A stretch of DNA of 12,384 bases from a virus (Duplodnaviria > Heunggongvirae > Uroviricota > Caudoviricetes), in IMG/VR virus record IMGVR_UViG_2713896773_000005; one strand, given 5' to 3'. Position 1 is the first letter of the stretch, and every line of letters begins with the position of its first letter. Below the pieces are notes generated by a model. The model did no database searches, was not told where the DNA came from, and saw nothing but the letters and a program-made list of their open reading frames with translations. Position numbers and translations under genes: made by a program. Shown piece after piece: positions 855 to 7,149 of the stretch.

Positions 855-1376
855 CTAACATCCGCGAATAATCTCGGTGTAATATTTCAAAAACTCGACT
901 CTAACCTGAGGTGGTAATCCTTTGGCTATCGCCTGTATCTGATTATCATGTTTTTTGATTAACTCATCTCCTTCAAGGCCATTAGCTGAAGAAAAAATTC
1001 TGCAAGCCAGATCTGCAACAGCGCCACGATTTAACTCCAGTGCGCCGTCCTCAATGGTGTAATAGCTGGAAGGAATCAGCGATTCAGACGGCAAAGACTG
1101 GATTTTATTCAAATCGCTACCGCAGTGCTTACATTTTATCGCCTCTTTCTTTACAAGCTCAGCGCAGTATGGGCATCGTCTCATGTCATTTTCGGTGATC
1201 TGCCTTTCTTCAATATCCCGCGCGTTACCACTTATTAAAAGAACGTGTATGATGGCAACTATAAACAACAAGCAGCCATACAACCACCAAGCGCCGAATG
1301 ATCGGCCCTTGCTTTTAGCGATGGCGGCAGGTATCAGCCCCAGAAATGCAGCTATGATGAAAAATTCCACTATCAT
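855..1376 (-). CDS. Membrane-anchored zinc-ribbon protein, 173 aa, function unknown
   Basis: Translation shows two hydrophobic helices at the N-terminus (IVEFFIIAAFLGLIPAAIA and WWLYGCLLFIVAIIHVLLISG) separated by a basic loop KSKGRS. A C-P-Y-C ... C-K-H-C four-cysteine zinc-ribbon motif follows, then a soluble domain of about 90 aa. ATG at 1376 with GAGGGG just upstream; stop TAG at 857..855. About 40% GC. Confidence 0.6.
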   Translation of the reverse strand: MIVEFFIIAAFLGLIPAAIAKSKGRSFGAWWLYGCLLFIVAIIHVLLISGNARDIEERQITENDMRRCPYCAELVKKEAIKCKHCGSDLNKIQSLPSESLIPSSYYTIEDGALELNRGAVADLACRIFSSANGLEGDELIKKHDNQIQAIAKGLPPQVRVEFLKYYTEIIRGC

Positions 1377-1431: not shown

Positions 1432-1656
1432 TCAAAAGGTGTTGGCGACTGCCTTTAGCGTACCCTTCGCAGTGGCAATGGCAAGCTCTTCAACTTGCTT
1501 AAGGGTCAGGTCTAGCTGATATGGCAGGTTAACAGGGACACTTGCAATGCGAGTGCAATCGTCTGGGCCATAGAAAGTCACGAAGGCACTGATCGCCTTT
1601 CCATTTTCGTTGGCATCCCAAACAACATCAGAGACCTTTACTTCTGCAATTTTCAT
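1432..1656 (-). CDS. Hypothetical protein, 74 aa, translationally coupled to the tape measure gene
   Basis: ATG at 1656..1654 overlaps the tape measure stop codon by 1 nt (TAATG). Frame open to stop at 1432. No family recognised. Confidence 0.55.
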   Translation of the reverse strand: MKIAEVKVSDVVWDANENGKAISAFVTFYGPDDCTRIASVPVNLPYQLDLTLKQVEELAIATAKGTLKAVANTF

Positions 1657-4600
1657 TAGTATTTCCCTCTAACGGCATTCCACAGCGGAGTGCCTGGTTT
1701 TCTTACTTGAGTATTAATGGTGTCAATCATTGCATCGTTGAGTTGCCTGCCAATAGCTGCAGCATTTGCTGAGCCACCTGTATTGGCCTGTCCACCTGAA
1801 CCAATGTTTATGTCACCAAAACTGACGCTGATAATTGGCACACCAGAGTCTGCCGCCCCAGCCTGATTTCCCCCAACAAGCCCACCAGAAGCGTAACGGC
1901 CTAAATTACCGTTGTTCATTAGACGATATAGGTTATCTACGCCGATCCGCCTAGTGGCTTCTTTGGTGAAAACGAACTCATCTTTATGCACGATGCCTGC
2001 GGGTTCATATTTACCGCCCGCACCTGTGTAACCACCGGAATCAAACAGGCTAACTCCAGAGTTTGCAGCGCTGGCATATGCTCCGCCTGGCGTGTTGCCA
2101 CCAGCACTACCGCTAATCCACCCCATCGCAGCCTGAACTGCATAGGCGACCAGTAACCGGTTTGTCACCTCTGCGATCATCTTTAACATGGATTTGGTGA
2201 ATTCTTTGAGGCTAGCCGTCCCAGTTGTAACCAAACTAGTCAACATGTCGGAAAGGCCACTGAACGTTGACCCCGCCACATTGCGCATTGCTTCAAATGT
2301 GTTTGTTGCGGAGTCGGCATAATCAGCCCATCCGCGTTTTGCACCAGCCTGCCAGTTACTGCGAAGTTCGTCTTCCTTCCGGTATGTCTCTTCCTGCTGA
2401 GCCAAAACTTTTTTTTGCGCGTCAGGATTGAAGGCATAGGTCTCAGACAAACGCTGACGTGTTGCCGCCCGCTCAGCCTCCCTGGTTGAAGTCCCTGCAG
2501 CTGCCGCATCAATTTCTGCTTGCTTAGCTGCCTGCTGCTGAGCAAATTTGGTCGCCTGATCGGCAAGAGAATTCAGTTTCTGCTGCCTTGCAATCTGATC
2601 GCCCAATGCTGCATTAATATCAGCCTGCGCGAGAAGTTTATCCTTATTGGCGAGCAGTGACTTCTCATCAATGGTAAGCGCACGGCCTTTTGGATCATTT
2701 GCCGTTGCCTCGAGAATACTGATTTTGGATATCAGTTCCCATTGCTGCTTACGTTGCTGACTGATTACATCGTTAATATCACGATGTTCTTGAAGCGTTT
2801 TTAGCTGCGCTTGCAGAGCTAAAGTCTCAGCATTGTAAGTGTCGGTTGAGCGATCACCTGCAGACACCTTAACGGCTGGGGTTTTGGGCGTTTTATTTGG
2901 GTGAAACTGCTTGTTTATCGCGTCAACTGCCTGTTGGCGTTGTTGCTCACTCCATTTATCAGGAGCGAGTGCGACATTTTTCCATAGCTCAGACAGAGCT
3001 TTAGTGCGTTTCTCCTGCCAGGTCGCTGACTGTTCAAGGATACGATTCCGATAAATCAGTGCATCGGTACGTTTATTGTCGGCATCGGCCGCCTGTTTTT
3101 CTGACTCATTAATTTCCTTTTGAGTGGATACTTCTTTTTGCTTTAGGCCGATCTGCTCCTTCAGGGATGCTATAGCCGCCAACTGAGCCTTGCGTCGTGA
3201 GTCATACTCCTGATCGCTACTGCTCGTATCATAGCTGTAGCCATACCCCATCCGTTGTCTTTCTGGTAGGAGAGCCTTCTCATACTCAGCAAGCTGCGCC
3301 TGCATCTTCTTAAGCATATCGGCAGGCGCTTCTGGACGACCGATATCAAGAAGGCTGTCCCACATCCCCTTGATGGCGTCACCAGTCGCTTTAGCCGCTT
3401 TCTCGATAAAGCCCATATTGTCGAGGATTTGCTGGCTGCGCTTCTGCTCAGCCTCGCTATAGGCTTTGGCTGCCGCCTCTGCCGCGCCCTCTTTATCACC
3501 CCGCCGTTCCAGCGCCGAAATATAGTCGTATTGGGATGAGGTGAGGAAATGGAGCGTCGAATTAAGATCTTCCGCTGCCTTGGTTGGGCTTGCATACAGT
3601 TTTTGGAAGTTCTTAATGGTGCTATCAACAGATTGGCCAGTGGCCTCCTGCATCGCCAGTGCTGCCCGGGTAACTGTTTCGAGCTGCTCCGTTTTAAATG
3701 TACCTGCTCCAACCACCTCTGCGAGTGTTCGAGCGGCAGCCGCAACCTTTCCACTGGAGCCGCCAATTTTTTGAGCCATGTCCGACAACTGGCTCGCAGA
3801 ACTTGCCGAATAATTACCCGTGAGTATCAGCTGCTTATTAAACTCACTGGCTTCCTGGCTGCCTTTGTACCAGGCAACAGCCATAGCACCAAGACCAACC
3901 ACTAAGCCGCCAATCCCTACTGTCACCGGATTAATGAAACCAATCAGGGTGCGTAAATAATCGCCTACACCAGTCAGCGCGCCCTTGACCCCACCGAACT
4001 GGTCTTTAATCTGCCCGCCCTGTTGCAGAAGGATCAGGAACGGCGACTGACCGCCAGCCAGCTGCGTGGCGATATCGGTGAATTGCGCCGGAAGCGTGCG
4101 CATTGCTGCGCTGTACTGACCAACGGAGATTCCAGCGCGCCGGGCAGCAGCTTCCTGCCGGGATAGCGCCTCTGGTAGTACGTCAGCGACACCAGAGAGG
4201 CGCTCACGCGTCTGGTTAAGGATTGTGTTGAAGTGCTCGAACTGAGCACCGTTAATGCGCCCAGCTTCGAAATGTTCCACCAGCTGTGCGTGCTGTTCAT
4301 CCAACGAATTGAACGCGCGGATAGTCGGGTCGATGGATCCAAGAAGGTTCTTTAACGCTGCGGACTGCTTTTCTGCCGCCTGGGTAGCGGCTAATTCAGC
4401 CTGAGCGCGCGCCGCGGCTTCTCCGGTGTCGGTCAGCTTGAGGCGGGTGTCATCCAGGATTTTGTTGTATGCCTGAAAGGTATCGGTATCCAGGAAACCT
4501 TTGGCCTGGAATTTCCGCAGCGATTCTTGCTGCTCATCCAGGCGGTTTAAGGCCTTGGTAACCGGGTCGATATTCTCCAGCAGCCCTTTGAGCGCGTTCT

Positions 4601-4787
4601 GCTGCTCCTTGAGTCCTTCGCTGCCTTGCTTCGCAGATTCAGCGCCAGCGCGAAACACGCTATTCAGATCATCTGCTTTATCTACAGCACCGGCCGCCGC
4701 CTGGCCGAGTTTATCCAGTTCGTTGCTGGCTGTTTTCAGGTCAGAAACATCGGCCCGCAAAGTAATCGAGGCGATCTGGTCTGTCAT
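1656..4787 (-). CDS. Tail tape measure protein, 1043 aa
   Basis: Longest ORF in the window, immediately downstream of the chaperone G/GT pair. N-terminal part is Ala/Gln/Glu/Leu-rich with a duplicated motif of about 55 aa. A central hydrophobic glycine-rich segment (LIGFINPVTVGIGGLVVGLGAMAVAWY) and a Gly/Ser/Ala-rich C-terminus follow. Start ATG at 4787..4785 overlaps the stop of the upstream T frame (TAATG). Confidence 0.9.
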   Translation of the reverse strand: MTDQIASITLRADVSDLKTASNELDKLGQAAAGAVDKADDLNSVFRAGAESAKQGSEGLKEQQNALKGLLENIDPVTKALNRLDEQQESLRKFQAKGFLDTDTFQAYNKILDDTRLKLTDTGEAAARAQAELAATQAAEKQSAALKNLLGSIDPTIRAFNSLDEQHAQLVEHFEAGRINGAQFEHFNTILNQTRERLSGVADVLPEALSRQEAAARRAGISVGQYSAAMRTLPAQFTDIATQLAGGQSPFLILLQQGGQIKDQFGGVKGALTGVGDYLRTLIGFINPVTVGIGGLVVGLGAMAVAWYKGSQEASEFNKQLILTGNYSASSASQLSDMAQKIGGSSGKVAAAARTLAEVVGAGTFKTEQLETVTRAALAMQEATGQSVDSTIKNFQKLYASPTKAAEDLNSTLHFLTSSQYDYISALERRGDKEGAAEAAAKAYSEAEQKRSQQILDNMGFIEKAAKATGDAIKGMWDSLLDIGRPEAPADMLKKMQAQLAEYEKALLPERQRMGYGYSYDTSSSDQEYDSRRKAQLAAIASLKEQIGLKQKEVSTQKEINESEKQAADADNKRTDALIYRNRILEQSATWQEKRTKALSELWKNVALAPDKWSEQQRQQAVDAINKQFHPNKTPKTPAVKVSAGDRSTDTYNAETLALQAQLKTLQEHRDINDVISQQRKQQWELISKISILEATANDPKGRALTIDEKSLLANKDKLLAQADINAALGDQIARQQKLNSLADQATKFAQQQAAKQAEIDAAAAGTSTREAERAATRQRLSETYAFNPDAQKKVLAQQEETYRKEDELRSNWQAGAKRGWADYADSATNTFEAMRNVAGSTFSGLSDMLTSLVTTGTASLKEFTKSMLKMIAEVTNRLLVAYAVQAAMGWISGSAGGNTPGGAYASAANSGVSLFDSGGYTGAGGKYEPAGIVHKDEFVFTKEATRRIGVDNLYRLMNNGNLGRYASGGLVGGNQAGAADSGVPIISVSFGDINIGSGGQANTGGSANAAAIGRQLNDAMIDTINTQVRKPGTPLWNAVRGKY

Positions 4788-5101
4788 TATTTCGTCTCCT
4801 TATGCATTACCTTGAGAGCCTCGCTTTCCATAATTTGAAGGTCAGCCATGCAGGCCGCCGCATCCTCAACCCCGTGTAACTCGAACATCCAGGGGAGAAC
4901 GTTGTAATCAAGGCCGGTCGCCCCGCTCGCGCCGACGCGCCACTGGGTTGCCAGGGCAGAGAAGATGGTGAAAGACTTCCACACAGAGGGCAGGATACCC
5001 ACCTCTTCCTCCACGTCCTCAGGCGTCAAACCAAAAGCGGCTAACTCCGCGAGAGTCGGTCCCGGCGTGTACAACGCTGCGGCGACCTGCCTTAGTTTTT
5101 T
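4787..5101 (-). CDS. Tail assembly chaperone GT, C-terminal (T) extension reached by a -1 frameshift from G
   Basis: The -1 frame relative to G is open from the slippery site at 5101..5095 through to the stop at 4789..4787. It has no credible start of its own: the listed start at 5074 is a TTG with no SD. Position between G and the tape measure gene matches the conserved G/GT arrangement. Confidence 0.7.
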   Translation of the reverse strand, partial: KKLRQVAAALYTPGPTLAELAAFGLTPEDVEEEVGILPSVWKSFTIFSALATQWRVGASGATGLDYNVLPWMFELHGVEDAAACMADLQIMESEALKVMHKETK

Positions 5102-5430
5102 TCGCGGATACCCATCAGCTCTTTGGTGTAGGCCAGACCGATGCTGTCGAACGCGCGCGGGTAGTTCTGAAGAAGGACAATAACGTTGTCGCGGGTGAAC
5201 TCGTCAGGTAGTGCCCACCCCTCGACAATTTCCATGAGGTAGTCGGCCTGCGGCTCGATAGCAGCCTTTTTACCTTCAGCCGACTTTTGCAGCTTTTCAT
5301 CCATAGAGCGCAGCTCTTCCAGTGTCTTGTGGCGGAAGGTAAAGGTCAGCTTGCCGTCTTCAGCACCAGCGCGCGGGATGCTGGCGGTAACGGAGAAGGT
5401 CGGGTTCGGGATCAGGGAGAATTTGGTCAT
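5092..5430 (-). CDS. Tail assembly chaperone G-like, 112 aa
   Basis: ATG at 5430..5428 with SD AAGGA upstream. Small acidic protein immediately upstream of the tape measure gene, ending at the slippery site. Assigned by position and architecture, not by sequence similarity. Confidence 0.75.
   Translation of the reverse strand: MTKFSLIPNPTFSVTASIPRAGAEDGKLTFTFRHKTLEELRSMDEKLQKSAEGKKAAIEPQADYLMEIVEGWALPDEFTRDNVIVLLQNYPRAFDSIGLAYTKELMGIREKN
5095..5101 (-). other. Programmed -1 ribosomal frameshift site (slippery heptamer A AAA AAC)
   Basis: On the minus strand the G gene ends ...CGC GAA AAA AAC TAA. The heptamer A-AAA-AAC fits the X XXY YYZ pattern three codons before the G stop, and a -1 slip enters the open T frame (...K/N-L-R-Q-V-A-A-A-L-Y-T-P...). 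Confidence 0.7.
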
Positions 5431-5443
5431 TTCGGTTCCTTAG

Positions 5444-5468
5444 AAAAACGAAACCCGCCGTAGCGGGT
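5444..5468 (-). terminator. Putative intrinsic terminator after the KilA-N-like gene
   Basis: Stem acccgc (5453..5458) / gcgggt (5463..5468), loop cgta, followed on the minus strand by TTTCGTTTTTC (plus 5444..5452). Sits 1 nt after the stop at 5470 and just upstream of the G-gene SD. Confidence 0.5.
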
Positions 5469-5469
5469 A

Positions 5470-6000
5470 TTAGTTAATGCCGGGCAGATACATCTGGACT
5501 TCGTCGGCGACGCGATCCCGGGCTGCATGTAATAGCTGCTTGCGACCACCAACACCCCACTTGGCCATTTGGCTGGCACACTGGCTAATTGCCTTGGTTT
5601 CAGTGTTGATGATGTGGTCGATTTTGTTCAGGCGGGACATGGCACTGATACCAAGACGCACCACTGTTCTAAATACTTCGTACACTTCAATCTCAAACTC
5701 TGGCTTTATCCAGGCGGCATAGCGGATTGCCAGAAGTTCAATGCCCCATGCACCACTTTGATCACCGCCTTTTATAACCTTAAGTGGTTGATTTTGTTCC
5801 GAAGCACTTTTTAGTGCTTTGGATTTTAGCGCTTTAACGAAGCGTTTGATCTGCGCGCTACGCAGGAAGACGCTGGGCCTTTGTGACTCAGTAGCCTCTC
5901 CGTTAGCTACCGCTGCCGCATGAAGATCGTTAAGACTGTACCGGCCTTCGTCATCAACGCGGACGGAGACCCCATTCACTGAGACGGTTGGGTGATTCAT
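5470..6000 (-). CDS. KilA-N domain-like protein (putative DNA-binding or antirepressor-like insert), 176 aa
   Basis: Translation contains ...GGDQSGAWGIELLAIRYAAWIKPEFEIEVYEVF..., which matches my recollection of the conserved KilA-N/APSES core (G-x-W ... LA ... A-W-I-x-P-E-F). ATG at 6000..5998 with an AAGG-type SD. Flanked by terminator hairpins on both sides. Confidence 0.55.
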   Translation of the reverse strand: MNHPTVSVNGVSVRVDDEGRYSLNDLHAAAVANGEATESQRPSVFLRSAQIKRFVKALKSKALKSASEQNQPLKVIKGGDQSGAWGIELLAIRYAAWIKPEFEIEVYEVFRTVVRLGISAMSRLNKIDHIINTETKAISQCASQMAKWGVGGRKQLLHAARDRVADEVQMYLPGIN

Positions 6001-6216: not shown

Positions 6217-7149
6217 TTAGCTGACAGTAACGGTGCATGCCGCCGACGTTAGGGTCTTGCCTGCGGCGTCAGTGACTTCGCAGGTATAAACGCCAGCATC
6301 ACCGGATGAGACAGACGAAATGTTGAACGTCGAGGCGGTTTTGCCCGGAATTGCGGAGCTTCCTTTCTTCCACACGTAGGTGTAAGGGGCTGAGCCGCCT
6401 TGCATAACGACGGCTAAATCGAGCGCATCTCCAACACTAACTGCTTTGGTTGATGGCAGATCAGTCAGGAACGCCAGCGGCGTAACGGATGAATCGGCGA
6501 TCGGGTAAATCTGCATATCCGATTCGAAGTTCATGCGCGCTTCGTTGCTTTCCACGGCGTTGATTTCGGTCTTAGGCACCTTCTGGAAAGACACTTTGGC
6601 AGAGTAATAACGGTCCGCTTTGCCGCGCGGGTTATGGAACCACACAGCAGTGGTGTCGCTGGATTCGTCAAGTTCACTCAGACGCTTGTAAATTGCCAGC
6701 AGCGGATCGTGCGCGAAGGTGTAGACCTGCACCACGGCGTTTTTGAAGGTCGGGATGGTACGGGCCTTATCGTCTTCAAGGAACTGCACGCTGATGGTCT
6801 GCTGGTCACCACCCTCTGTGGAGAGGGTCATCACCTGCGGCATCGTGATCCACGTGTCGATTTTACGCAGCGTGCCCGCGCCAGTGCCTGCCGGGAATTT
6901 GGTGGTGTCAGAGGTATCGAACGAATCCAGCACGATTTTGGTACCGGCTACGGATTTAACGCGCAGCACCATATTATCGAGTTTTAGCCAGCCGGAGCTC
7001 ACCTGCACTACGTCGCCCGCCAGGATGCCAGCGGCAGATGCAACAGTCAGTTCGCATTCAGTAGCGTTAGAGGCAGCGGTAAAGGTGATGGGAGCCTGAT
7101 AGGCCTTGGCCACGTTAACACGCGAGCCGTTAGGGATTGCGAATGCCAT
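6217..7149 (-). CDS. Major tail (tube) protein with C-terminal Ig-like domain, 310 aa
   Basis: Sits between the tail-terminator-like gene and the G/GT chaperones, the canonical position. SD AGGAG upstream of ATG at 7149..7147. C-terminal ~80 aa (...PYTYVWKKGSSAIPGKTASTFNISSVSSGDAGVYTCEVTDAAGKTLTSAACTVTVS) has an immunoglobulin-like pattern (W ... DAGVYTC ...). Confidence 0.75.
   Translation of the reverse strand: MAFAIPNGSRVNVAKAYQAPITFTAASNATECELTVASAAGILAGDVVQVSSGWLKLDNMVLRVKSVAGTKIVLDSFDTSDTTKFPAGTGAGTLRKIDTWITMPQVMTLSTEGGDQQTISVQFLEDDKARTIPTFKNAVVQVYTFAHDPLLAIYKRLSELDESSDTTAVWFHNPRGKADRYYSAKVSFQKVPKTEINAVESNEARMNFESDMQIYPIADSSVTPLAFLTDLPSTKAVSVGDALDLAVVMQGGSAPYTYVWKKGSSAIPGKTASTFNISSVSSGDAGVYTCEVTDAAGKTLTSAACTVTVS

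Follow-up and report, generated by a model that had tools for sequence, protein, structure and literature searches.

The site at 5101..5095 on the minus strand of the viral DNA analyzed here, a stretch of 12,384 nucleotides that we call the window, is very probably (we put the probability at about 0.9) a programmed -1 ribosomal frameshift through which two tail assembly chaperones are made from one message. The initial annotation had read the locus as the conserved G/GT frameshift of tailed phages, and that reading holds: gene order, protein families, reading frame, slippery phase, and deep conservation all fit. The frameshift is confirmed and ordinary, a widely conserved textbook feature. Its kind is well known and its motif is already annotated in phage TLS; what is new is this instance, together with its HK639-like relatives, in which the feature is unannotated.

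The slippery heptamer ends the chaperone gene

On the minus strand, the window carries the gene order tail tube, G, T in the -1 frame, and tape measure, with the following features:

6217..7149, minus strand: major tail (tube) protein, with an Ig-like domain at its C terminus (Pfam Phage_tail_3, 152.6 bits, and Ig domains; phrog_584)
5092..5430, minus strand: gene G, tail assembly chaperone of 112 aa, the zero-frame product, ending REKN* (open reading frame and translation)
5095..5101, minus strand: slippery heptamer A AAA AAC (X XXY YYZ, in zero-frame phase), within an A7 run at 5102..5096
5092..5094, minus strand: G stop codon TAA, directly 3' of the heptamer (sequence)
5058..5087, minus strand: candidate stimulatory hairpin, 7 nt 3' of the heptamer (RNAfold)
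4787..5095, minus strand: T extension, 102 codons in the -1 frame (5095..4790) plus TAA at 4789..4787 (translation, Pfam)
1656..4787, minus strand: tape measure gene, 1043 aa (Pfam TMP_2 and Tape_meas_lam_C; phrog_24)

The tail tube gene (7149..6217) is the upstream landmark of the chaperone locus, and the Pfam scan also places a tail terminator gene upstream of G. The ATG of G is preceded, 6 nt on its 5' side, by the Shine-Dalgarno (SD) sequence AGGA, and its product matches Pfam PF08748 (Phage_TAC_4) at 96 bits against a gathering score of 21.1. The REKN at its C terminus is invariant in homologues down to 52% identity. The T extension matches Pfam PF08809 (DUF1799) at 61.7 bits against a gathering score of 26, over residues 21-97, so that the domain spans about 5035..4805, and it also matches the PHROG profile phrog_680. 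Another profile, phrog_17368, has 213 positions, of which 13-107 match G and 115-213 match T; since it covers first one and then the other, full-length fused entries of this chaperone family exist.

The end of G reads ...ATC CGC GAA AAA AAC TAA on the minus strand. The initial annotation gave the correct coordinates for A AAA AAC, and we confirmed that the heptamer lies in the slippery phase of the open reading frame 5430..5092. It had been placed three codons before the G stop, whereas its codons are the final three sense codons of G and the TAA adjoins them. The -1 frame is free of stops from about 35 codons 5' of the site to the TAA at 4789..4787, which overlaps the tape measure ATG at 4787..4785 (TAATG); the earlier claim that it runs open to the tape measure start is thus borne out. 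A fusion of about 213 aa had been predicted, and the prediction of a fusion stands, with the length of the conceptual product corrected to 214 aa (112 + 102).

The bare count of AAAAAAC in the window, five copies against 2.3 expected, is without significance. Only the copy at 5101..5095 lies in slippery phase in a real open reading frame that continues in the -1 frame for 100 codons or more, and the reading frame of G contains no other canonical X XXY YYZ heptamer. We found no conserved SD-like element 5' of the heptamer; the GGG at -13..-10 is a Gly codon of the clade and is missing in the Serratia group.

The arrangement is conserved across distant relatives

We compared the site with about 150 related loci, among them HK639-like, Serratia, and Erwinia prophages and phages T1, TLS, EK99P-1, and eiAU. 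Across this set the slippery site adjoins the stop codon and the -1 frame is open for 101-106 codons. G could be located in 80 of 81 IMG/VR loci sampled at 93-100% G identity (and in one it was not found), and in all 80 the A7 run lies directly before the stop. The heptamer is A AAA AAC in 79 of these and A AAA AAT in one, where the downstream sequence is quite different. It is also kept in all 25 loci taken from genomes of Enterobacter, Pseudescherichia, Leclercia, Atlantibacter, Siccibacter, Serratia, Erwinia, and Leminorella, at G identities down to 46%; in these loci the -1 extension is 101-104 codons long, against 4-24 codons before a stop in the +1 frame. The zero-frame stop itself varies among relatives between TAA, TGA, and TAG. 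At one locus (L102, Enterobacter quasihormaechei, around 2837..2848) the stop has become TCA, so that G is one codon longer (AAC TCA TAG), and this is the only relative inspected in which the stop does not adjoin the heptamer.

Further afield, T1, TLS, JLBYU09, SG01, EK99P-1, and eiAU, at 33-41% identity, all have A AAA AAC followed by a stop. A tblastn search with the conceptual fusion returned 1121 phage records with G and T as two adjacent pieces, and T was in the -1 frame in every one of those records that we inspected. At the corresponding position a Ralstonia-type, high-GC clade of 21 loci reads CGG GGA AAC TGA, and hence has the heptamer G GGA AAC, and the -1 extension there is 103 codons long; the viral contigs with G GGA AAC TGA are L126 and L133-L152. 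Several of these (L143-L152) have very stable GC-rich hairpins after G GGA AAC, down to about -35 kcal/mol over 50 nt. Two groups keep T in the -1 frame with no canonical heptamer: Webervirus (L107, L131, and L154), with GCA AAA GTY TAA, and phage KPAJ1 (L129), with CAA AAG CGC TAA. Judged by their sequence, these sites imply slippage of a single tRNA on A AAA or A AAG. It is through this conservation in relatives that the site in the window is beyond chance.

Several records departed from this layout or appeared to. A T1-like IMG/VR contig (L125, 1400..1860) has an interrupted G, with T in the +1 frame relative to the shortened reading frame, and this looks like indel errors or a degraded copy. 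A single-piece tblastn match that resembled an in-frame fusion (H72) proved to have the normal two-frame layout. A homologous-protein search with the conceptual fusion gave 17 matches, none of them full length, and so no naturally fused GT among them. A 214-aa protein from a Logan assembly (P0001) is 93% identical to G in its first half and then continues into Pfam PF05100 and not DUF1799; it is probably a chimera of assembly or gene calling.

The coding frame changes at the heptamer

Three relatives (L091, L094, and EK99P-1) have a -1-frame stop immediately 5' of the heptamer, and in them, therefore, a shift into the T frame is possible only on the heptamer itself. Among 71 unique HK639-like sequences, 101 of 110 third positions of the G frame are variable upstream of the site, and none of the heptamer's three synonymous positions (in GAA, AAA, and AAC) varies. 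At roughly 0.08 per site, with sites treated as independent, such invariance has a probability of about 5e-4. Over the first 20 codons 3' of the site, variable positions number 13 at the third position of the -1 frame against 5 and 2 at the others. The phase of variation thus switches directly after the site, which argues that T is under protein-coding selection from its first codon. The synonymous invariance of the first T codons is suggestive, and by a rough count it is without significance on its own. In many relatives the first ATG, GTG, or TTG of T comes only at codon 17-44, at the edge of DUF1799 or inside it. By this pattern of variation, protein-coding selection on T begins upstream of any possible T start.

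A probable stimulatory hairpin follows the site in some clades

The RNA downstream of the G stop can fold into an interrupted hairpin of 11 bp (GGUC-G-CCG-CA-GCGU / loop UGUAC / ACGC-CGG-GACC). When T codons 2-14 were synonymously recoded with the stop kept, the native fold, at -15.0 kcal/mol, was more stable than the 95 recodings (-9.0 +/- 2.7 kcal/mol; z -2.25). Against dinucleotide shuffles the downstream fold showed no excess stability (z 0.18 and -0.46). The same recoding control gave z values of -3.4 to -3.8 in T1-type phages, -2.4 to -2.7 in two high-GC loci, -2.3 in eiAU, and about 0 in Serratia/Erwinia-type prophages. These Serratia/Erwinia-type relatives are without the hairpin, which is therefore not essential to the chaperone family.

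The stem falls in the same alignment columns in every clade that has the hairpin. When 30 sequences were aligned without gaps and balanced by clade, an alignment in which independent events are few, 80% of cells were paired, compared with 33-52% when the partners were slid, and the covariation score was 0.42 against at most 0.26. Exchanges within the stem include GC:15 / CG:6 / UA:6 and CG:10 / GC:10 / UA:5. About 10% of close relatives have the outermost pairs of the hairpin broken by synonymous changes. A search of 4700..5500 with Rfam cmscan at E <= 10 found no frameshift element, only three chance-level matches to unrelated families. We conclude that the hairpin at 5087..5058 is a probable, non-universal stimulator.

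Alternative routes to the T protein

A run of seven A's raises the question of whether the polymerase, and not the ribosome, slips. In transcriptional slippage, RNA polymerase would add an extra A on the A7 run, giving a minority of mRNAs with G and T in one frame. One inserted A has the same frame effect as a -1 shift, a homopolymer of this length could permit slight slippage of the polymerase, and slippage on A or T runs is productive elsewhere (PMC5009743). Efficient slippage in bacteria, however, is on record for runs of nine A or T, and a productive site is expected to have a run of about nine or more, or a shorter one with a specific upstream RNA hairpin (PMC5009743), of which the A7 run here falls short. 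A run of eight or nine was never seen in about 130 loci, and a hairpin spaced 7 nt from the site is in keeping with a ribosomal stimulator. The Ralstonia-type sites, with only A3 at the same position, and those of Webervirus and KPAJ1, with only A4, fit ribosomal but not polymerase slippage, so that ribosomal slippage is favored and a transcriptional origin is very improbable. Homopolymers are also error-prone in sequencing, and the two frames could in principle reflect an indel artefact or the decay of a single GT gene into a split pseudogene. We consider the chance of this practically negligible: the two-frame layout recurs in more than 1100 phage records and in more than 100 independent loci that differ in stop codon and flanking sequence, synonymous-type variation is retained in both G and T, and so many independent records exclude a sequencing artefact.

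Another way to do without a programmed shift is for T to be a separate protein with a start of its own, TTG at 5074..5072 or a later GTG, which is the start given in RefSeq, the heptamer being a coincidence. In E. coli prophages the gene caller PGAP does list a DUF1799 protein of 72 aa as a gene of its own, a TTG-initiated reading frame of 95 aa at 5074..4787 is in the list of open reading frames, T codon 8 is TTG, ATG, or GTG in the HK639-like clade, and an AGG lies 11 nt upstream of the TTG. That TTG is inside the hairpin, though, with poor SD spacing, and the pattern L..A....Y..P and the codon periodicity of the -1 frame both start directly at the heptamer, upstream of it. Moreover, many relatives offer no T start codon until codon 17-44, translation from the PGAP start would leave out the first third of a Pfam domain that opens at residue 21, and fused profiles and joined coding sequences exist, all of which makes an independent start scarcely credible. 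A different matter is whether a ribosomal shift at this site need involve both tRNAs. Slippage of a single P-site tRNA could occur with AAC in the P site while UAA awaits release factor, or while tRNA-Lys occupies the P site and the A site is empty. The stop adjoins the slippery site in nearly all relatives, whichever heptamer they have, Webervirus and KPAJ1 have only a tetranucleotide (A AAA or A AAG) suited to one-tRNA slippage, and codons that are decoded slowly in the A site promote shifting (PMC5009743). Both halves of the heptamer are nevertheless conserved, and in two versions, which favors a tandem slip, and L102 keeps the arrangement with its stop moved one codon away. We regard the one-tRNA route as unlikely in the window and return below to tandem slippage on A AAA AAC.

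The locus resembles lambda G/GT in layout and T1-type phages in sequence

The -1 frameshift that yields gpG and gpGT is best known from phage lambda (Levin, Hendrix & Casjens 1993; Xu, Hendrix & Duda 2004, 2013, 2014; cited in PMC5009743). As in lambda, the locus here lies between the tail tube and tape measure genes, T is in the -1 frame without a start of its own, an X XXY YYZ heptamer is found near the end of G, and a low-level fusion product is expected; the presumed roles, with G on the tape measure and T on the tube protein, are alike by analogy. The features that mark the G/GT class (Xu et al. 2004) are found in the window, namely position, -1 frame, an in-phase heptamer in the overlap, and conservation. 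The second reading frame has no conserved start or ribosome-binding site, the HK639-like clade having TTG, ATG, or GTG at codon 8 with poor SD spacing. A member of the class would also be expected to make its fusion at a few per cent of the level of G and to need both proteins for building tails. The two systems differ in that lambda uses G GGA AAG where the window has A AAA AAC, in that the stop here directly adjoins the heptamer, and in that a KilA-N gene with its own terminator separates the tube gene from G.

The proteins themselves are of another family. A Pfam scan (E <= 0.01) returned Phage_TAC_4 and DUF1799 only, with no match to the lambda G or T families, which we take to be Phage_TAC_2 and Phage_tail_T. 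The AlphaFold model of G has a pLDDT of 63.8, and a Foldseek search of the PDB with this low-confidence model gave nothing below E = 1.9; we also found no NCBIfam family and no sequence relative in the PDB. On these comparisons the window's pair is a functional analogue of lambda G/GT and not a demonstrable sequence homologue. The G/GT reading in the initial annotation stands for the class of frameshift, with the qualification that the proteins belong to the T1-type family and not to lambda's own G and T families.

That assignment follows from PF08748 and PF08809, both of which score above their gathering thresholds. The same Pfam pair is found in T1-type phages (Drexlerviridae), including TLS tfmA/tfmS and gp39/gp40 of Klebsiella phage Shelby, and a joined frameshift coding sequence is already deposited for TLS (tfmS) and for Shelby. 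T1, TLS, JLBYU09, and SG01 also share A AAA AAC plus the stop and a hairpin in the same columns 7 nt downstream. The T1-type hairpin differs in sequence (GGCGGUUU...AAACCGCC), protein identity to the window's chaperones is 32-37% in the T1, TLS, SG01, and Webervirus records, and Webervirus, Shelby included, has GCA AAA GUY instead of a canonical heptamer. The closest sequenced phage is HK639 (HK639_14 and the unannotated reading frame before HK639_15), which is 89.7% identical in nucleotides across G-T and 93.6% identical in the protein sequence of the conceptual fusion. Its heptamer and hairpin are identical to those in the window, and the site differs in having the stop TGA for TAA, with a synonymous CTG for CTA in the T frame.

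The heptamer also turns up outside this family. IS1 insAB' uses A AAA AAC as a -1 site too, with a transposase and not a chaperone as its product. In Acinetobacter phage Loki, gp12/13 has AAAAAAC immediately adjoining the chaperone stop (PMC5313236), and the g-t genes of the haloarchaeal virus HCTV-2 have an A AAA AAC -1 site (PMC5009743); the likeness is to the heptamer and adjoining chaperone stop in Loki and to the heptamer in HCTV-2, and in both it is a likeness of the site.

Genes around the chaperone locus

The Ig-like domain of the tail tube protein (residues ~230-310) is encoded in frame, with no frameshift adding it. Between the tube gene and G, the window carries a KilA-N gene of 176 aa (5470..6000, minus strand) with its own intrinsic terminator (5468..5453), in a segment that shares 83% identity with a portion of Salmonella phage 29485. 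In HK639 this slot upstream of G is taken by an unrelated hypothetical gene of 226 aa with terminators on both sides, and in E. coli ABWA45 by a "phage tail tip fiber protein." Since it is occupied differently among relatives, the slot looks like a hot spot for accessory genes ("morons") inserted in the late operon.

On the 3' side of the tape measure gene lie a 74-aa reading frame without a family and a 173-aa zinc-ribbon protein (1432..1656 and 855..1376, minus strand), and the genes that follow the tape measure differ from lambda-like minor tail genes. At the end of the window, about 100..792 matches the HK97 gp22/gp23 region at 90% identity. The non-lambda-like genes after the tape measure and the HK97-like end together indicate a mosaic structure for the window.

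A model for chaperone synthesis

The arrangement of the site leads us to infer that the phage in the window produces a GT fusion. Most ribosomes would make G (112 aa) and terminate at the UAA at 5094..5092. A minority would slip back by one nucleotide on A AAA AAC (5101..5095), tRNA-Lys re-pairing from AAA to AAA and tRNA-Asn from AAC to AAA. Shifted ribosomes would then read CUA AGG CAG... in the -1 frame for 102 further codons, giving a GT fusion of 214 aa (...GIREKN-LRQVAAALYTPGP...) that would end at the tape measure start codon. After Glu-C digestion, the predicted junction peptide would be KNLRQVAAALYTPGPTLAE if both tRNAs slip in tandem after Asn is incorporated, and KKLRQ... if the slip precedes the decoding of Asn. 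The adjoining stop and the hairpin probably slow the ribosome over the heptamer and may set a low shift frequency. In E. coli, A_AAA_AAC is less shifty than A_AAA_AAG (PMC5009743), which would suit a low GT fraction, and other g-t frameshifts use A_AAA_AAC as well (PMC5009743).

In the lambda model, the binding partner of G is the tape measure and that of T is the tube protein, the ratio of G to GT is about 30:1, and neither chaperone is found in the virion (PMC5009743). On the lambda analogy, the tape measure protein would be coated both by G and by the G portion of GT, the T domain (DUF1799) would recruit the tail tube protein, and neither chaperone would end up in the virion; the G and T of the window's phage may thus bind the same partners as those of lambda.

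For the T1-type family as a whole, we tentatively suggest a compact, conserved recoding cassette, composed of the heptamer, an obligatory adjacent stop, a 7-nt spacer, and a stem-loop over T codons 3-13. Stop and hairpin together would set the ratio of G to GT, and the Serratia and Erwinia clades would have lost the hairpin and would use heptamer and stop. We hold this suggestion as possible and somewhat doubtful.

Annotation and significance

The main value of the finding lies in annotation, since the feature is overlooked by current genome annotation. In the HK639 record, the T extension (L001, 4378..4681) is unannotated. E. coli prophages that are 92-96% identical have two separate entries in RefSeq, one named "phage tail assembly chaperone" and the other "DUF1799 domain-containing protein"; the reading frame of the latter, 72 aa long (L132, 2967..3182), starts 90 nt past the G stop, within the Pfam domain. 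As a consequence, protein databases lack the 214-aa GT chaperone for this whole group of prophages. A literature search turned up no paper about chaperones of the HK639 type.

The frameshift site opens no new biological question. If the recoding cassette suggested above is real, the ratio of G to GT might be coupled to the availability of release factor late in infection. The comparative data, for their part, provide a clean natural series for the tuning of weak bacterial slippery sites.
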